In this document: piece after piece, positions 38,720 through 48,591 of the stretch
Numbering within the stretch: position 1 is the first letter of the stretch
Layout: each line of letters starts with the position of its first letter
NCBI GenBank assembly: GCA_963717465.1
Contig: OY970340.1
Location: forward strand, 2,016,001-2,080,000
DNA length: 64,000 bases
Source of the DNA: Candidatus Bathyarchaeota archaeon
Lineage (GTDB): Archaea > Thermoproteota > Bathyarchaeia > Bathyarchaeales > Bathycorpusculaceae
Direction of reading: 5' to 3'
The notes under the pieces: model-generated
What the model was told of the DNA's origin: nothing
Databases searched by the model: none
Seen by the model: the letters and a program-made list of their open reading frames with translations, nothing else
Program-made: the position numbers and the translations under genes

Positions 38720-41050
38720 ATGGGAGATAGAATGATGAGTGAACAAATTGTAGACCCTAAAAGTTTCGATGGACTTCACAGATGCATATGCGGTTTTTGC
38801 AGTACCGGATCTTGTCAATTGCTTGAAACAGTTCAAAACGGTAAAATCGTTAAGGTTGAACCTGACTGGGAAAGCCCATTTAACCCTGGGCCGTACTGTC
38901 AGAAGTGGAAGTACAGTCTAGAATACATTTACAACAAGGACAGGCCAATGTACCCAATGAAGCGCATTGGCAAGCGTGGCGAAGGCAAATGGCAAATAAT
39001 ATCCTGGGAGCAGGCGGTAAGCGAAATAGGCGCTAAGATGAAGGAAATCATTGCAAAGTATGGTGCTGAAACTACTTGTGGTTTCTGGGGTACAGGTCGA
39101 GCCGCAAACTTAGGTTTAGGGCTTGCTAGTTATTTTGTTTTGATTGGCAGTCCGAATTTTGGTTCGATTGCGGCTCAGACATGAGCTGGACCCACGAACC
39201 AGGCCCTAGGATTGGGTTATGGCGTGGGAATTACGTATGCAATGATTATCCCTGGCAAGACGAAAGGTATCTTTGTTGCTGGTACGAACCCGAGTGAGTC
39301 TTGGACTTATTCTTGGCCTGCTTTCGTTGCGGGATTGGAGGCTGGCACGAAAATGCTCTGTATTGATCCGCGATTCAGTGAGACTGCGAGGCTTTCTGAA
39401 AAATGGTTGGCGATTAGACCTGGGACTGATGCTGCATTGTTTATGGCAATGATAAACGTGCTCATTGAAGAGGACCTGTATGATCATGATTTTGTGGAGA
39501 AATGGACTTTTGGATTTGACAAGCTCAAGGAACGGGCTAAGCAGTATACGCCTGAGAAGGCTGCAGAGATAACTTGGATTCCAGCTGAGAAGATCAGGGA
39601 AGCAGCAAGGTTCATAGCGAAGAACAGTCCATGCACTTTCCCGTTTGCCTACGCGATTGAATCATCAGGCAGGAACTCTTTAAGCAACGTTCGCGCAAAA
39701 TACATGATGCCCGCGTTAACCGGCAACATCGATATTGAAGGCGGCGAATACCTACACGCAAAACCGAAATTTCTTGGCGGCACAATGGCAATGCACGATA
39801 TAGCTGCGTCAGCAGATGTTGATCAAATGATGAAGCAGGTTGGATTGGATAAGTATAGAGCGTTGAACTTTACGATTGCTCCCTTGATTAATCAGGCAGC
39901 TGATGCAAAAGGATACTGGACAGGTGGTGCTCACTCCTCTGGAACAAGAGGTCCAAACTTCCCGACCTTTACAGATACAATGGTATCAGAGAAGCCCTAT
40001 CCAATCAAAGCTATGATTTCCGGTGAAGTAGGTCCAATGCGGAATTATCCAAACATCAAGAAAGTCTATGAAGGTTTGAAGAAGCTTGAACTGTTCGTTT
40101 ACATTGAATGCGCTCAAATGACGCCTGAAGCAATGATCGCAGATTATGTTTTGCCTGGCACTAGTCAATTTGAGAGAAATTCCGGCTACGCGACTGTTTC
40201 ATGTCAAGGTGAAATTGAGTTTGAGATCGCTGGTGATCGTGCCGTTGCTAGCAAAATACCTGGACTATGGGATCTAAGAGATGATAGCATAATATACCGT
40301 GATCTCGCAGTTGCAACACTTGGAAACGAAAAAGTTGATAAAGTTTGGCCTTGGAAGACTTTAGAAGAGTTTCAGGACATTTTCTATGAGCCTGCTGGTT
40401 GGACGCGCAAACAGGTGATTGAGGAATGGAAGGGTGTTCCGCCGTATGAGCCGAAATTCAAGAAGTACGAGGAGATTGATCCTGAGACTGGACAGATTAG
40501 GGGCTTTGGTACTCCTGAGGGTAAAGTTGCTTTCTACTCTACGATTTTGGAGCAGCTTGATTATGATCCGTTGCCGTATTATCAGGAATGTGCTTGGACG
40601 CCAATCAGTGCACCTGACATCGCAAAAGACTTTCCGTTGATCATGTGTAGTGGTGCCAGATTCCAGGAAGCTCACCATGGCGAACTACGACATATTAGCT
40701 TGATGCGTCATTTGCGGCCTTTTCCACGTGTAAAAATGCATCCTTTGACAGCGCGTAATATGGGTATTGGTGATGGCGAGTGGGTTTACATTGAGACTCC
40801 TGTTGGCAGGTGCATGCAGCAAGTGCGGTACGATTTCGGCGTTAATCCGAAGGTTGTTTCGCCTGAGCATGGTTGGTGGCGTCCAGAATTGCCCGGTGAG
40901 GAGCCATTCTTGCATGGATGGACTGACTGGAACATTGACGTTACAATCCCGAACGATGCAGAACAACTTAGCCCAGAACTTGGAGCCTGGTGCTTCAAAG
41001 CGGCGCTCGCAAAAGTGTACTCAGCCAACATTGGACCAATGGGACCATAA
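38720..41050 (+). CDS. Cytoplasmic Mo/W-bisPGD oxidoreductase, acetylene-hydratase-like family, with in-frame TGA (39182-39184) at the metal-ligand position; candidate selenoprotein (~776 aa)
   Basis: The two track ORFs are in the same frame (offset 492 nt); CGFCSTGSC..C [4Fe-4S] motif; RGEGKWQIISW; GSPN..T*AGP; IDPR; IRPGTDAAL; C-terminal EHGWWRPE; no Tat signal. Confidence 0.85.
39185..39228 (+). promoter_or_regulatory. Putative bacterial-type SECIS hairpin within the CDS
   Basis: CCCACG(39191-96)/CGTGGG(39223-28), CCA/TGG and GGCCC/GGGTT pair around apical TAGGATT, 22 nt after the UGA. Confidence 0.6.
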
Positions 41051-41067: not shown

Positions 41068-41090
41068 CTTTCCTCTTTTCTTTTTTTTTT
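41068..41090 (+). terminator. Archaeal oligo-T terminator after the Mo/W enzyme
   Basis: Pyrimidine run ending in T10, starting about 18 nt after the stop. Confidence 0.6.
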
Positions 41091-42067: not shown

Positions 42068-44019
42068 ATGCAGTTTAAGTTAACAGCGCCCTACACGGCT
42101 TCACCGGGGCAAGAGGAAGCCGTCAAAAAGCTTGTCACTAACTTGGCCCACAAAGATAAGCAGACGCTCTTGGGCATCACAGGCAGCGGCAAAACCTTTG
42201 TTATGGCGAATTTAATTAATAAACTGCAAAAGCCCACCTTGATCATAGCTCATAATAAGATTTTAGCCGCCCAATTGTATGGTGAACTCAAAGAGCTTTT
42301 TCCTGAAAACCGTGTTGAATATTTTATTTCTTTTTATGATTATTACCAGCCTGAATCCTACATGCCTACAACAGATACGTACATTGAGAAAGATTCAGAT
42401 GTAAATGAACAGATTGAGAAAATGCGAATGCATGCTGTTTCAAGCATTGTCAGCCGTAACGACACGATTATTGTGGCAAGCATCAGTTGCATTTACAGTC
42501 TTGGTAACCCGGAAGATTTCAAAAGCCTAGCAGTCGAGTTAACTGTTGATAAACAATTTACTCGACAAGAGTTAATTCATGCTTTAGTTGATATGCAGTA
42601 TGAGCGTAACGATATGGCACTTGAACCGGGCAGGTTTCGAGTCCGCGGAGACGTGATAGATGTTGTTCCCGCCTACGAGAATGACATTTTGCGCGTAGAG
42701 TTGAATGGAAATAGAATTTGCAAAATTAAAGAAGTTGATCATTTAACTGGAAACGTAAAAGTGACTCTCGACAGAACCACACTTTACCCAGCAAGGCAAT
42801 ATGTAGTCCCTGAGGAAAAGCATGCACTTGCGCTTGAGCATATACAGCAAGAGTTGGATCAGCGGTTGCTTGAGCTTCCGCCTTTTGAAGCGCACAGGCT
42901 TAAGCAGAGGACAAATTATGATTTAGAGATGATTACGGGAAATTGGTTTCTGTTCTGGAATGGAAAATTACAGCAGGCATTTCGATGGGCGAAAACCAGG
43001 TGAGCCGCCGTTTACTTTGATGGATTATTTCCCAAAAGATTACTTGTTGATTATTGATGAGAGTCATCAGACAATTCCGCAATCAAGAGCCATGTACAAC
43101 GGTGACTATGCAAGGAAAAAGAACCTTGTGGATTTCGGCTTTAGACTGCCAAGCGCTATCGATAACAGGCCTTTAAAGTTTGAAGAGTTTGAGAAGAAAA
43201 TGGGCAAAACCCTTTTTGTATCTGCAACGCCTGCTGAGTATGAGTTGGAAAAAAGTGGTCCCGCCGGTGGAATTGATTACCCGGCCAACTGGTTTGCTTG
43301 ATCCAGAGATTGAACTTCACCCGATTGAAGGTCAAATGAAGCATTTGATGCTTGAAGCTAAGAAGACTATTGAGCGTGGAGACCGCATTTTAGTTACTAC
43401 GCTAACTAAGAGGATGGCTGAGGATTTAGCGGATTACCTTGCTAAAGAAGGCTTTCGTGTAAGGTACATGCATTCGGAAATTGAAAGTTTAGACCGTATA
43501 GAACTTGTGCGTCAACTAAGAGTAGGCGAATTCGATATTTTAGTGGGAATAAACTTGCTGCGTGAAGGTCTGGACATTCCAGAAGTTGCATCCATCTTCA
43601 TCTTAGACGCAGATAAAGAAGGCTTCTTACGAGACGAGCGAAGTTTAATTCAAACTATCGGGCGGGCTGCAAGAAACGTTAATGGAAAAGTATTCCTTTA
43701 TGGTGACGTTAAAACTCAGTCGATTAAGCGTGCGATGGAAATAACAAATTACAGGCGTGCTTTCCAAATGCGGTACAATAAAGTGCACAATATAACGCCT
43801 AAGACAATCGTAAAAGGTGTTTCTCATAAGGAAGGAGTAATCAAGGGTGCGAAACATTTGCCGAAGTCAGATATTCAAAGGCAAATAATCGAGTTTGACG
43901 CGCAAATGAGAGAGGCTGCTGAGAGACTGGATTTTGAGAAGGCTATTGAATTAAGAGATACGATCGCCATGTTGACTAAGTCGTTGTCTCAGAATGCGAG
44001 AATTGAGCAGTTGACATAG
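42068..44019 (+). CDS. uvrB: Excinuclease ABC subunit B (+1 indels near 42935 and 43260)
   Basis: [43 protein letters not shown]-terminal UVR domain across three frames. Confidence 0.93.
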
Positions 44020-44097: not shown

Positions 44098-46996
44098 TTG
44101 AGCGTCAATCATAAGAGATAATATTACAATTAAGGGCGCTCGGGAACATAATTTAAAAAATATTGATGTTGAGTTGCCCAGAAACAAGTTAATAGTGATT
44201 ACTGGGCTTTCAGGCTCAGGAAAATCCACTCTTGCATTTGACACAATTTATGCGGAGGGACAAAGGAGATACGTTGAAAGCTTATCCGCTTATGCAAGGC
44301 AGTTTTTAGGTTTAATGGATAAGCCCGATGTTGACTCTATTGAAGGTTTATCTCCAGCTATTTCAATTGAACAAAAAAGCACAAGCAAAAATCCTCGTTC
44401 AACAGTGGGCACAGTCACAGAAATTTATGATTATTTGCGACTTCTCTACGCGCGAATTGGAGTCCATCATTGTCCAAAATGTGGCAGTTCAATTCACCCT
44501 CAAAGCCCGGAAAACATCACAAGCCTTGTAATGTCTGAGAAAGGTAAAACTATGATCTTTTTAGCGCCAGTAATCAGGGGCATGAAAGGAACGCACGAGC
44601 AGGTTTTCGACGATTTAAAAAAGCAAGGATACACAAAAATCAGAGTGGACCAGAAAATTTACGATTCCGACTCAATCAAGGATGAAGTGAAACTGGTCCG
44701 CTATGAAAAGCATTGGATAGAAGCAGTCATAGACACGGTTAAGAATTGATGATGAAGAACGTTCGCGAATTGCTGAGGCAGTAGAGCAAGCGCTTCAATT
44801 CGGCAAAGGAACAATGATTGTTATAGACGCCGAGAACACGGATGCAAACAAAAAAAGAGAGCTCGAACGATTCGAAGCTGAAACAATCTACAGTACCTTT
44901 GGTGCTTGTCCCAATCATCCAGAAATTGTTTTTGAAAGCTTAGAGCCGCGAATGTTCTCGTTTAACTCGCCTTTTGGTGCATGCCCAAGTTGTCACGGTC
45001 TTGGGGAAATAATGGAGATAGCTGAAGACCTTGTGATTCCTGATAAGTCAAAATCCATAATGGATGGTGCGTTAGAAGTCTATGGCAAAATGGAGTTAAG
45101 TTGGCGTGCACAGCAGCTTGCAATGGTGGGCAAAAAACATGATTTTGACGTTTTCACTCCAATCGCTGACTTTTCTGAGAAGCAACTGCATGTTCTATTG
45201 TACGGTGATGCAGAGCCAATAAATGGCAGTTGGTCTAATGGCGCTAACATGTGGATGCGCAATGGTTGGGAAGGCATTATGCCCCAAACTATGCGGCTTT
45301 ATCGCCAAACAGAATAGTGAATGGAGAAAAGAAGACATTGAGAAATTTATGATTTATAAACCCTGCAATGTGTGTCAGGGCAAAAGGCTTCAGCCAGTGG
45401 TTCTTGCCGTTCGAGTATTAGACAAAAGCATAATCGACGTGACTGACCTTTCAATTGACGAGGCAGTTAACTTTTTCCATAATTTACCAGAGAAACTAAG
45501 CGAGAAGGATATGGCGATTGCCAAACAGGTGCTTAAGGAAATTAATGAGCGATTAGGCTTCCTTAAAAATGTAGGGTTAGGCTATCTCTCGCTTTCCAGA
45601 GCCGCAAGAACGCTCTCAGGCGGAGAAGCTCAACGTATCCGTTTAGCTACACAAATCGGCAGCAACCTAATGGGCGTTCTCTACATTTTAGATGAGCCAA
45701 GCATTGGCTTGCATCAAAGAGATAATGCTAAATTAATCGCTACACTCCGCAAGTTACGTGATCTTGGGAACACTTTGATAGTGGTTGAGCACGACGAGGA
45801 AACTATTCGAAGTGCAGATTACATTGTGGATATGGGTCCAGGAGCTGGAATTCATGGAGGTCACGTTGTTGCTGAGGGAGCGCCATGGCAAATTGAGAAG
45901 AACAAGAAGAGCCTTACGGGGAAGTATCTTTGTGGCGAATTAAAAATTGAGGTTCCTTCACAGAGAAGAAAAATCCTTGATTACATAACGGTTTCTGGTG
46001 CTCAGGAAAATAACCTGAAGAATCTTACGGTTAAGCTTCCGTTAGGCGTTCTATGCGGTGTAACTGGTGTTTCAGGTTCAGGGAAGAGCACGCTTATGAA
46101 CCAGACAGTTATGCCTGCTTTAAGGCAAAAGTTTGGAGAACGCGTTGACAAAGTAGGAAGGCACAGTCAAATTGATATTCCTCGATTGGTAAGGAACGTT
46201 ATAGTTATTGACCAAGATCCCATTGGCAGGACTCCGAGGAGTAATCCTGCAACTTACACGAAACTTTTCGATGAAATCAGGCGCATTTTTGCCTCAACAA
46301 AAGAAGCAAAAGCACGTGGATACAAGGAAGGTCGATTCTCGTTTAACGTTAAAGGTGGCAGATGCGAAACATGCAGCGGCGATGGCGTTTTACGGATTGA
46401 AATGAACTTTCTCCCAGATGTTTACGTGCAATGCAGCGAATGCAAGGGTAAACGCTACAACAAGGAAACCCTTAGCATCCTCTACAAGGGCAAGAACATC
46501 GCTGAAGTGCTAGATATGACTGTGGAGGAGGCTGCAGTGTTCTTTGAGAATGTGCCCTTTATTTCAAGGAAACTTCAGACGTTGCTTGATGTTGGGTTAG
46601 GTTACATTAAGCTTGGGCAGAGTTCAACAACGCTTTCTGGAGGAGAAAGCCAGCGTATCAAGATCACTCGTGAACTTAGCAAGAACAAGTCGGGGCACGT
46701 AGTTTACATGTTGGATGAGCCTACAACGGGGCTTCATTTTGATGATACCAAGCGGCTTATTGCGGTTTTGAATCGGCTTGTAGAAAAAGGAAACACTGTT
46801 TACGTTATCGAGCACAATTTGGATGTGGTTAAGAGTTGCGATTACCTTCTTGATTTGGGACCTGAAGGTGGTCTGGCAGGAGGAGAAATTCTTGCCAGCT
46901 GGGACGCCTGAAGAAGTCGCTGAAAACTCGAACTCATACACAGGGAAATTCCTGAAAAAAATGCTGACTAAACAGGCAATGGCGATTCAACAGTGA
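44098..46996 (+). CDS. uvrA: Excinuclease ABC subunit A (+1 indels near 44116, 44744, 45315, 46897)
   Basis: [32 protein letters not shown], zinc fingers; restored frame ends at TGA overlapping the uvrC GTG. Confidence 0.93.
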
Positions 46997-48591
46997 TTCC
47001 AATTTCTGCTCCAACTGAATTCAAAAGCAGTCAGATTCCACTTAATCCTGGAGTATACTTGTTTAAAGATGAGTCGGGTGAAATCTTGTATGTTGGGAAA
47101 GCCAAGAGTCTACGGCAGCGAGTTAAAAGTTACTTTGCAAATTCTGATCAGCCAGCCAAAACGAGGCAGTTGGTTTCAAGAATTAGAAACATTGACTGGA
47201 TTGTCGTGAATAATGAAGTTGAAGCGTTGCTTTTGGAGAATAAACTTGTTAAGCAGCACTCGCCAAGATACAATGTTAACCTTAAAGATGCTAAGACATA
47301 CGCTTACATCGCTTTTACACGTGAAGAATACCCGAGAATTTTGACTTCACGCAAAGTATCACGCAAACTCGAATCTTTCGGACCCTACACCGACGGGTTC
47401 ACTAGGCAAGATTTACAACGGTTGGTTGTGCGAGTTTTTAAATTGCGGACTTGCAAGAAACTACCCAAACGTGCCTGCTTGAATTTTCACATCGGCCTCT
47501 GCACAGCACCCTGCATCCAAAACGTCACGGGCGAAAAGTACATTCGTCAGGTGGAGCAAGCGCGTTCTTTTCTGAATGGGAATTATCAGCAGACAATTGA
47601 ATTGCTTAAGGCGCAAATGGAGAAAGATTCTCAAACGCAAAAATATGAAGAGGCGCTTGATTTGCGAAATCAAATCTTTTCCATCCGCCTTTTAACCCAA
47701 CGCCAGGTAGTTGATAACGAGAGAAGGTTTGACCAAGACGTAATGGTCTTTAGACAATTCGGCGAGAAAGTGAACGTTGTGCAAATGGGTGTGCGGAAAG
47801 GGGTTTTGCTGGGGAAGAAAGAGTTTTCAGTTGATTTGCAGCCGCAGATTGAGCAGGAATTTCTTAAAGCGTTTTACGCAACGAACAGGATTCCAAGAGA
47901 GATACTGCTTAACAAGCCTTGTTGGCAAGATAATGATGAAAAGGTTGCTTTGGAAGAGTTTTTGTCATCGAAACGGTTGGCGCCTGTAACGTTGGTTGTT
48001 CCGAGGCGTGCAGATAAGCTTGCGCTGGTAAAGTTGGCAGAGAAAAATTTGGAGTCCACTATGAACGTTGATGGTGCATTGGTTGATTTACAAAATACGC
48101 TAAATCTTGCAGTGCTGCCTCGGTTAATTGAATGTTTTGATGTTTCAAACTTGGGTCAAGAGCACGTGGTTTCCGGCATGGTCAGCTTTAAAGACGCAAA
48201 ACCCAACAAGAATGGCTATCGCAAATTCAAAATTAAAACTTTCACGGGGCAGGATGATTTTGCAGCAGTCAACGAAGTGGTAACGCGAAGATACAAGCGC
48301 GTAATGGAAGAAAAAGCTGTATTGCCTGACTTGGTGGTTGTTGATGGAGGACCTGGACAAGTCAGCGCCGCAAAAACTGCTCTACAATCGTTGGGGCTTC
48401 AGCTGCCGCTGATTGGTTTAGCTAAGGAGCATGAGGAGATTTATTTGCCCGATGGATCCTCTGCTCTGAAATTTGATGAAAACAGTAAGATGATGCTTTT
48501 GTTGAGAAGGATCAGGGATACAGCGCATAACTTTTCAGTTGGTTACAACATTAAACGCAGAGAAATGAAAATGCGTGAAGATTTCGAGTGA
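46993..48591 (+). CDS. uvrC: Excinuclease ABC subunit C (ends before the usual HhH tail)
   Basis: GIY-YIG PGVYLF..YVGKAK, ECFDVS, PDLVVVDGG.GQ, IRD.AH. Confidence 0.93.
   Translation: MIPISAPTEFKSSQIPLNPGVYLFKDESGEILYVGKAKSLRQRVKSYFANSDQPAKTRQLVSRIRNIDWIVVNNEVEALLLENKLVKQHSPRYNVNLKDAKTYAYIAFTREEYPRILTSRKVSRKLESFGPYTDGFTRQDLQRLVVRVFKLRTCKKLPKRACLNFHIGLCTAPCIQNVTGEKYIRQVEQARSFLNGNYQQTIELLKAQMEKDSQTQKYEEALDLRNQIFSIRLLTQRQVVDNERRFDQDVMVFRQFGEKVNVVQMGVRKGVLLGKKEFSVDLQPQIEQEFLKAFYATNRIPREILLNKPCWQDNDEKVALEEFLSSKRLAPVTLVVPRRADKLALVKLAEKNLESTMNVDGALVDLQNTLNLAVLPRLIECFDVSNLGQEHVVSGMVSFKDAKPNKNGYRKFKIKTFTGQDDFAAVNEVVTRRYKRVMEEKAVLPDLVVVDGGPGQVSAAKTALQSLGLQLPLIGLAKEHEEIYLPDGSSALKFDENSKMMLLLRRIRDTAHNFSVGYNIKRREMKMREDFE

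Follow-up and report, generated by a model that had tools for sequence, protein, structure and literature searches.

Reviews up to 2026 place bacterial selenocysteine insertion sequence (SECIS) elements in coding regions and those of archaea and eukaryotes in untranslated regions (UTRs) (PMC13188914, PMC11227280, PMC9499178). The bacterial element, with E. coli fdhF as its prototype, is a hairpin of the coding sequence (CDS) directly 3′ of the UGA; each UGA has its own hairpin, the hairpins of different genes are unrelated in sequence, and the reader is the set of winged-helix domains at the C-terminus of SelB, in a system that also uses SelA. Its published model allows a loop of 3–9 nucleotides (nt), an upper stem of 4–16 base pairs (bp), a UGA-to-loop distance of 16–37 nt and a minimum free energy (MFE) of −7.5 kcal/mol or lower (PMC13188914). 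Archaeal SECIS elements are stated to lie in UTRs; the euryarchaeal type is found in the 3′ UTR, rarely in the 5′ UTR, 70–1500 nt away from the UGA, and two UGAs can share a single element (PMC9499178). It needs two invariant adenines in a GAA_A motif, and the reader of any archaeal SECIS is still unknown (PMC11881835). The SECIS-like elements of Asgard archaea and those of eukaryotes lie in the 3′ UTR (PMC11227280), while the eukaryotic selenocysteine codon redefinition elements (SREs) of SELENON and SELENOT are CDS stem-loops beside the selenocysteine (Sec) UGA, whose stem, loop and spacer all matter (PMC8704476). A fusion of PSTK with the archaeal SelB (aSelB) has been published for Bathyarchaeota and for one Archaeoglobus (PMC8762117, PMC9499178). 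The subject of the present analysis is a hairpin directly downstream of an in-frame UGA in a gene of Candidatus Bathyarchaeota archaeon (assembly GCA_963717465.1), which lies in a stretch of 64,000 nt (contig OY970340.1, positions 2,016,001 to 2,080,000), hereafter the window.

We put the probability at roughly three in four that this hairpin (39191–39228) is a cis-acting CDS element that redefines the UGA at 39182–39184 as selenocysteine. Most likely it is a SECIS inside the gene, of a type that has not been described in archaea. The features of the locus, in window coordinates, are as follows.

38720..41050, plus strand: predicted selenoprotein gene of 776 codons (from open reading frames with read-through translation, Pfam and the alignment with 2e7z)
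39182..39184, plus strand: UGA predicted to be read as selenocysteine, U155, at a metal-ligand Cys position (from Cys homologs, 2e7z, paralogs and the Sec machinery)
39185..39190, plus strand: 6-nt spacer GCUGGA between the UGA and the hairpin base (from the sequence)
39191..39228, plus strand: interrupted hairpin of 38 nt, the proposed in-gene Sec-recoding (SECIS-like) element (from fold, energy and paralog covariation)
39207..39213, plus strand: apical loop UAGGAUU (from the paralog alignment and folds)
41070..41090, plus strand: T-rich run resembling an archaeal terminator, 20–40 nt past the stop (from the sequence)

Under translation table 11 the gene falls into two open reading frames (ORFs) of one frame, 38720–39184 and 39212–41050, with the TGA between them. 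Reading through this codon gives a protein of 776 residues with the Pfam domains Molybdop_Fe4S4, Molybdopterin and Molydop_binding; it reaches no NCBIfam equivalog. Among proteins of solved structure it is closest to acetylene hydratase (2e7z, E 1.6e-104, residues 22–767), which the window enzyme matches in its Fe4S4, molybdopterin and dinucleotide-binding domains and in the Cys ligand to the metal, Sec155 (context AAQT-U-AGPTNQALGLGYGVGITYAMIIPGK) being paired with the Cys of MYMCIGNT. In acetylene hydratase the catalytic Asp sits directly after the second Fe-S cysteine. The Asp of CQSCD aligns with Ser28 (CGFCS) in the window enzyme, and we therefore name the latter acetylene-hydratase-like and not acetylene hydratase. 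Judged from its sequence, the product would be a cytoplasmic oxidoreductase with tungsten or molybdenum in a bis-pyranopterin guanine dinucleotide cofactor, resembling acetylene hydratase.

The TGA might also be a genuine stop in a split or dead gene. Gene callers split the locus, its database entries are C-terminal pieces of 596–607 residues, and three of the 11 paralogs discussed below (p7, p8 and p10) carry other disruptions. We find this reading hardly credible, since the TGA stands exactly at the metal-ligand Cys column in 11/11 paralogs that cover the site, the coding potential is good on both sides of it, and the genome holds a complete Sec machinery. TGA ends 253 of 1032 long ORFs in the genome and is therefore not reassigned genome-wide.

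When 70 nt were folded with RNAfold, the MFE structure (−21.5 kcal/mol) and the centroid structure were both this hairpin. The outer stem pairs CCCACG (39191–96) with CGUGGG (39223–28), the middle stem CCA (39199–201) with UGG (39220–22), and the inner stem G/GCCC (39202–06) with GGGU/U (39214–18). The original prediction, made from the letters of the window, had proposed these pairings 6 nt after the UGA and an apical UAGGAUU that begins 22 nt after it, and the fold reproduced both. With a loop of 7 nt, an upper stem of 4–5 bp, a spacing of 22 nt and −18.5 kcal/mol, the hairpin is in range for these four parameters of the bacterial model. It differs from bacterial elements in the fixed 6-nt spacer to the stem base. 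The MFE loop has G at positions 3–4, and a G stands among the first two loop bases only if the apex is drawn instead with the U bulged and a GGAU loop closed by an A-U pair.

How much of this structure has been kept among the relatives of the gene? The genome (G000; one contig of 3.05 Mb, 40% G+C) contains 16 matches to the window protein. The enzyme family comprises 11 copies of 43–94% identity plus further fragments, and such an 11-fold expansion of a putatively Sec-containing acetylene-hydratase-like enzyme is unusual for an archaeon. A compact hairpin closes at offset 6 in 10 of the 11 paralogs (−14.3 to −20.7 kcal/mol) and at offset 7 in p9 (−16.2 kcal/mol). Unconstrained folds show it clearly in every paralog except p6, which has a different MFE fold. 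In the 11-segment alignment 89% of the cells of the 14-pair structure are standard pairs, as against 23–47% when the 3′ partners are slid by 1–3 columns. Stem covariation, which the original prediction had named as a check, is present among these TGA-bearing paralogs: five pairs change on both sides, the covariation score was reached by 0 of 500 column shuffles, and RNAalifold recovered the outer and inner stems. Some of the compensations are synonymous. GCCC/GGGU becomes GCCU/AGGC, for instance, and Leu CUA to UUA on one arm is accompanied by Leu UUG to UUA and Gly GGU to GGC on the opposite arm. The stem of p9, a paralog of 43% protein identity, has been rebuilt as CCAACG/CGUUGG behind a 7-nt spacer; the peptides of p9 and p10 differ from the others, and the hairpin is still kept at offset 7 and 6, respectively. 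The loop reads UAGGAUU in six of the 11 (p0–p3, p5, p8), with single-base variants in p4 (UAGGGUU) and p7 (UAGGAGU). The unpaired bases past the outer stem (alignment columns 25–26) vary among AA, UA, UU, AU and UC. Among synonymous shuffles of the p10, p9, p6 and p4 hairpins, 2, 8, 9 and 22 of 500 fold as well as the natural sequence.

The control set consisted of 12 stop-free homologs, one from the same genome and 11 from five other genera of the class (33–42% identity), and all 12 have Cys at the U155 column. Their best offset-6 hairpin does not exceed −11.1 kcal/mol in stability and 8 of 12 have none. The pattern that the original prediction had set against its own reading, a hairpin shared with Cys homologs or lost from other TGA genes, was thus not what we saw: it is missing in 12/12 Cys homologs and kept in 11/11 TGA paralogs. 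These homologs are distant, and the control is therefore weaker than the following comparison of Sec and Cys forms of HdrA.

In G000 HdrA is a fusion with MvhD, 854 residues long, with U212 (DCSIU) and U682 (CNWU), the latter spanned by the Pfam domain FlpD. Both UGAs are followed by a hairpin of their own, and synonymous shuffles fold as well in 0 of 500 cases at the first site (z −5.7) and in 3 of 500 at the second. An HdrA gene with two TGAs occurs in five of 61 genus genomes (G000, G071, G009, G061, G077), the others having Cys forms. For a matched test 30 loci were fetched, and the folding energy of the 60 nt after the codon was compared. At site 1 the mean is −26.8 kcal/mol in five Sec genes versus −8.5 (minimum −14.0) in 26 Cys genes, with nearly equal peptides (IEGPRMVEV.RHP versus IEGPKMVDC.RHP). 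At site 2 it is −23.6 (five Sec genes) versus −14.2, where only two Cys genes matched the motif. The same two hairpins are found in G423, from another genus of the family, and in G254, with changes in the apical part. Seven Sec-HdrA genes show elevated synonymous conservation downstream of each UGA (z 1.85 and 2.51), and the 3′ arm of the first hairpin accounts for four of the five highest-scoring windows. The loop begins with AAG in the first HdrA hairpin and with G in the second. We also noted in the second hairpin (L040/L050, G000:C1 ~1520400–1520441) a symmetric tandem GA/GA internal loop, CG-GA-CC opposite GG-GA-CG, which is kept in all seven Sec-HdrA genes and is reminiscent of kink-turns or of eukaryotic SECIS cores. 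The TGAs in the HdrA-like genes of G287 were rejected as ordinary stops.

The rule was then evaluated over the whole genome, on 4299 in-frame TGA contexts. A context had to have a start codon upstream, 8 or more open codons to either side and a total length of 70 codons or more. The ranking used the best compact hairpin (18–50 nt) with its first base exactly 6 nt past the TGA. This measure replaced an earlier one, the first structural component of a 96-nt fold, which was not discriminating because long-range components dominate it. Ranks 1–11 were taken by HdrA UGA1 (−24.3), HdrA UGA2 (−20.8) and nine enzyme paralogs. The window hairpin stands ninth of 4299 with −18.5 kcal/mol, the first percentile being −11.7, and p6 is nineteenth. 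Ranks 12, 13 and 15–18 have poor coding scores, while rank 14 is U171 (MMS-U-GCPMGH) of the ORF at L042, with an offset-6 hairpin of −16.6 kcal/mol. Similar hairpins after other in-frame UGAs had been named as a check in the original prediction, and they do occur with the same 6-nt spacing at the HdrA-MvhD UGAs, at the very top of the ranking. In total a hairpin follows 14 of the 16 Sec-UGAs assigned in G000, the exceptions being selD and U111 of L042.

Further examples come from distant relatives. In G051, G118 and G176 a TGA-bearing selD adjoins a PSTK-aSelB fusion gene (40–42% identical to copy 1 of G000). The selD hairpin of G051 has 30 nt and −16.5 kcal/mol at offset 6, that of G176 a homologous AAGCUUC/GAGCUU stem at offset 6, and that of G118 is an ~80-nt hairpin with the outer stem AAGGUGCCGG/CCGGCGCCUU from offset 6. 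The 6-nt spacing is thereby found at HdrA UGA1 and UGA2, in 10/11 paralogs, at L042 U171 and in these three selD genes. Genes unrelated to one another (acetylene-hydratase-like enzymes, HdrA-MvhD at both UGAs, selD of distant relatives) share it, and the association of a UGA, a spacer of 6 nt (rarely 7) and a stable hairpin of ~30–40 nt extends to at least five unrelated sequence contexts. No sequence motif of loop or bulge common to all hairpins was found when we looked for one; UAGGAU, shared by the enzyme loop and the (paired) HdrA-1 stem, was taken as coincidence. Sec and Cys have been exchanged independently between genes, as a separate observation: G061 and G423 (L115, L114) combine Sec-HdrA with Cys-selD, and Sec in selD occurs in G000 (L041), G051, G118 and G176.

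Several other TGA-bearing ORFs, candidates from a coding-potential screen, were set aside, and none of them was counted as a selenoprotein gene. The TGA of L045 (U296 of 333) lies past the CCG-domain match at residues 149–239 and is therefore probably a true stop. L046 and L047 match no Pfam family, and L043, L044, L048 and L049 were judged from translations only. A CarB-like and an apgM-like case look like broken genes in a reading of the translations, with no family search.

Which machinery could use such a signal? The original prediction had offered two explanations, a bacterial-style decoding system or a gene imported from a Sec-using bacterium with its SECIS intact. What G000 has is not a bacterial decoding system. 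SelA is not found at threshold (best 20.5 bits against a cut-off of 267.9), SepSecS is present (400 bits), and there are two tRNA-Sec genes with a UCA anticodon. In two ORFs, 732 and 730 residues long, a KTI12/PSTK kinase is fused to an EF-Tu GTPase, domain 2 and Pfam aSelB_III. Residues 276–727 of copy 1 can be aligned with Methanococcus aSelB (4ac9) over its full length, while bacterial SelB structures align only over their own N-terminal 256–300 residues, and TIGR00475 matches only at positions 2–338 of 581. The winged-helix domains at the C-terminus of bacterial SelB, whose presence was to be checked, are lacking: Pfam SelB-wing_2 and SelB-wing_3 have no matches in the genome, and the E. 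coli positive control was matched. As these genes show, G000 makes Sec-tRNA by the archaeal/eukaryal route (PSTK, SepSecS, SelD) and delivers it with a PSTK-fused aSelB. Copy 1 has its nearest named relatives, at ~70% identity, among proteins of Ca. Bathyarchaeota/Bathyarchaeia. The fusion occurs in four of 61 genus genomes (twice in G000, then in G061, G077 and G071, where it is broken at a contig end) and in 12 of 401 class genomes. All four fusion-bearing genus genomes carry Sec-HdrA; G009, which is 56% complete, has Sec-HdrA and no fusion match.

The second explanation, horizontal acquisition of the gene from a Sec-using bacterium with retention of a bacterial SECIS, would fit the patchy distribution of the enzyme, which is absent from the 36 other genus genomes searched and from the four other Sec-using ones, and the hairpin satisfies most published constraints on bacterial elements (7-nt loop, 22-nt spacing, MFE below −7.5; PMC13188914). 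Among 401 class genomes searched at E<=1e-120, relatives outside G000 were found in only eight genomes, as stop-free genes of 38–42% identity. In a collection of 5.8 billion proteins the close relatives (63–79% identity) are pieces of 560–607 residues on NCBI contigs, and for two of them G000 encodes a sequence at least 90% identical. The next tier is made up of full-length Cys proteins of ~40% identity from Chloroflexota, Bathyarchaeia, Nitrososphaerota and Deltaproteobacteria. So the nearest relatives beyond close kin are full-length Cys forms (38–43% identity) from mixed phyla that include Bathyarchaeia, and no TGA-bearing bacterial relative was found in these searches. A bacterial SECIS would moreover lack a reader in G000, because SelB winged-helix domains are missing, and the same hairpin layout, with the same spacing, serves the native HdrA-MvhD. 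The import has found no support, and we regard it as very improbable.

Several observations weigh against the recoding function that we propose for the window hairpin. Considered alone, it is suggestive at best and not clearly beyond chance: 10 of 200 dinucleotide shuffles fold as well (z −1.79), and synonymous-codon shuffles of the gene average −15.4 against an observed −19.6 kcal/mol, with 46 of 500 reaching it (z −1.35). The outer stem consists largely of codons for conserved P-T and G-V-G residues, so the constraints on protein and RNA are entangled. Synonymous-site conservation after the UGA is unremarkable in seven paralogs (z 0.92, rank 147 of 765). The paralogs share ancestry, and the covariation therefore reduces to few independent events, mainly p0/p1, p9 and p10. 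The selD gene of G000, just upstream of PSTK-aSelB copy 1, has an in-frame TGA with no compact offset-6 hairpin and only a long structure from offset 9–12, and a similar structure forms in Cys-selD relatives. At U111 of L042 there is only a weak hairpin, at offset 4. No protein domain able to read the hairpin was identified, aSelB here having no extension beyond the Methanococcus protein. Finally, Sec insertion at the UGA is itself a prediction from sequence alone.

The first of these points could mean that the hairpin has no recoding function and is a by-product of G+C-rich codons for the conserved GPT...ALGLGYGVG in an A+T-rich genome. The shuffle average and the lack of excess synonymous conservation would both agree with this, and in the window gene the peptide GPT...YGVG by itself favours pairing. 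The apical loop codes for L-G-L, so its conservation too is confounded by the protein sequence. Since the window hairpin alone is barely beyond chance, the case rests on comparison, and in its comparative context the hairpin is well beyond chance. Compensatory synonymous changes keep the pairing, p9 and p10 keep it with other peptides, and the Cys homologs of the enzyme do without it. The unrelated HdrA and selD peptides have hairpins of the same spacing, while near-identical Cys-HdrA genes have none, and the genome-wide rank of the window hairpin argues in the same direction. A mere by-product is therefore improbable.

It is also conceivable that the hairpin is a helper of the SRE type, one that boosts read-through, and that the true SECIS is located well upstream or on a neighbouring transcript, or has a form invisible to our searches. 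Eukaryotic SREs, stem-loops whose stem, loop and spacer matter, likewise adjoin Sec-UGAs (PMC8704476). The aSelB without a visible RNA-binding extension would suit this alternative, as would the selD gene of G000, which has no compact hairpin, so that some other signal must exist at least for this gene. We looked for SECIS elements elsewhere. The stop codon of the window gene (TAA, 41048–50) is followed by the T-rich run at ~41070–41090 with no G+C-rich stem, as the original prediction had noted. A T-run ~20–35 nt past the stop was seen by eye in nine TGA-bearing paralogs, with no stem in common. Of ten 3′ regions folded, nine have this layout, the exception being the Cys paralog p11, and in the HdrA genes of G000 and G077 the T-run lies no more than ~20 nt past the stop. 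In the window gene the run comes too early to allow any structured element in the 3′ UTR. The region upstream of the window gene is A+T-rich and shows no stem.

Database models gave a similar picture. Rfam has no match in the window at the gathering threshold; at E<=5 the four Sec loci match no SECIS family, and the single chance-level match there, TLS-PK3, belongs to an unrelated family. SECIS_1 (RF00031) has no match in the whole genome at E<=1. A simplified GAA_A descriptor (NAA/A, 3-bp clamps, at least 4 G-C pairs) matched once in 22 flanks of 300 nt from 11 Sec genes, at a background of 0.023 per 300 nt. For the paralogs and for HdrA from G000 and G077, the sequence 3′ of the gene revealed no conserved structure. 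SelB thus proved to be of archaeal type, and the UTR SECIS that the original prediction had coupled with it as the pattern opposed to its reading was not found. Each HdrA UGA has a hairpin of its own, as in bacteria, whereas in the published archaeal genes that contain two Sec codons both are served by a single SECIS (PMC9499178). Taken together, these results make a helper role unlikely, though a cryptic distal element could escape sequence searches of this kind, and the helper role deserves more weight than a by-product or an import.

How could such an element act? When the UGA occupies the A site of the ribosome, a spacer of 6 nt would bring the stem base to the mRNA entry, where bacterial SECIS elements and frameshift stimulators act. 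The window hairpin, whose base would stand at the entrance of the mRNA channel in this geometry of bacterial SECIS elements and of frameshift and read-through stimulators, could slow the ribosome, could hinder release-factor action, or could offer a docking surface to the complex of PSTK-aSelB with Sec-tRNA or to a putative adaptor. As a result, Sec-tRNA would prevail over termination.

This arrangement can be set beside the described systems. It resembles the bacterial one in the position of the hairpin, in the number of hairpins per UGA and in their unrelated sequences between genes, and departs from it in having neither SelA nor winged-helix domains and in its archaeal aSelB fused to PSTK. 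With the Methanococcus type it shares PSTK, SepSecS and aSelB as well as the families HdrA, MvhD/VhuD and SelD; unlike that type, its element lies in the CDS 6 nt from the UGA, the bases past the outer stem vary with no invariant adenines among them, and the GAA_A motif with G-C clamps is not matched. Its likeness to the Asgard and eukaryotic systems lies in the archaeal/eukaryal machinery, and the second HdrA hairpin happens to hold a tandem GA/GA loop, whereas the window hairpin has no GA quartet and lies in the CDS. To an SRE it is similar as a CDS stem-loop adjacent to a Sec-UGA, and the SRE of SELENON also begins 6 nt after its UGA. The difference is that SREs assist a 3′ UTR SECIS in a subset of genes, while in G000 no such SECIS is detectable and the hairpin accompanies nearly every assigned Sec-UGA. 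The published Bathyarchaeota systems with PSTK-aSelB have the same fusion as G000, which has SepSecS, SelD and tRNA-Sec in addition.

An archaeal machinery combined with a UGA-proximal hairpin would make the system bacterial-SECIS-like in position, with a presumed archaeal reader. On balance, and with less assurance than for the window element itself, we favour the view that fusion-bearing Bathyarchaeia use a fourth Sec-decoding architecture: archaeal/eukaryal synthesis and one CDS hairpin per UGA at 6 nt, no UTR SECIS, and the fusion protein or the ribosome entry as reader. In the literature covered, with subscription journals largely, and supplements (e.g. the Fig. 9B gene cluster of PMC8762117), outside its scope, we found neither a SECIS of Bathyarchaeota nor any in-gene SECIS of archaea, and the word SECIS occurs 0 times in the main text of PMC8762117. 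The link between the PSTK-aSelB fusion and in-gene hairpins is new here. Archaeal machinery paired with a UGA-adjacent hairpin breaks the rule that divides coding-region from UTR elements, suggests a possible rationale for the unexplained fusion, and offers a local, simple and mutable signal for seeking the archaeal reader. There is also a practical consequence: archaeal selenoprotein finders tuned to UTR elements will miss such genes, and gene callers cut all the paralogs in two. A simple rule (in-frame TGA, 6-nt spacer, compact hairpin) was enough to find the known sites again and brought up new candidate families.

One of the candidates is the ORF of 320 residues at L042:388-1350 (minus strand; G000:C1 ~2822987–2823949), with no Pfam family and two in-frame TGAs. 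It lies ~4 kb from the second PSTK-aSelB and is a candidate new selenoprotein.

The second PSTK-aSelB itself (G000:C1:2827369–2829725; L002, L013, L085) is 54% identical to copy 1 and adjoins the second tRNA-Sec. The GTPase motifs of this copy carry changes from GHVDHGKT to GHCKHGKT, in switch I from RRGMTLDMGF to PLSRLFDMEF, in G3 from DLPGH to EMPGN and in G4 from NKID to SKID. The second tRNA-Sec differs in a compensated acceptor-stem pair and an extra D-arm base. A second copy of this type was seen neither elsewhere among the 61 genus and 401 class genomes searched nor in the protein collection, and the parts of PMC8762117 and PMC9499178 on which we draw make no mention of a divergent second copy. 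Among the genomes searched G000 is also the only one with the 11 Sec acetylene-hydratase-like genes. The second PSTK-aSelB/tRNA-Sec pair could be a second decoding channel dedicated to this expanded family.

A further group consists of four secreted multi-domain genes of surface type, L121:1339-2379(-), L121:4751-5749(-) and L121:5915-7072(-) in G176 and L119:17065-18522(+) in G051, which adjoin selD and PSTK-aSelB in these two distant Bathyarchaeia lineages. Their TGAs share a homologous N-terminal position, within a domain common to the four, in the contexts ...C-U-..., U-GG-C and U-PI-C, and are followed by hairpins at offset 6–7 (−14.4 to −20.0). The Pfam matches are confined to C-terminal parts (Ig-like, CarboxypepD_reg and dockerin). 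By these features they form a candidate family of extracellular selenoproteins.

A metagenome-assembled genome labelled 'Candidatus Nanoarchaeia' (L080) carries a PSTK-aSelB 70% identical to the G000 copy, and its label is probably a misclassification or a binning error.

Downstream of the window gene, uvrB is present in three overlapping or adjacent ORF pieces on the plus strand (42068–44019: 42068–43003, 42960–43301 and 43180–44019), a pattern that points to frameshifts in a decaying gene or else to errors of the assembly. The pieces are followed by a uvrA-like ORF (45223–46911) and then by uvrC (46993–48591).

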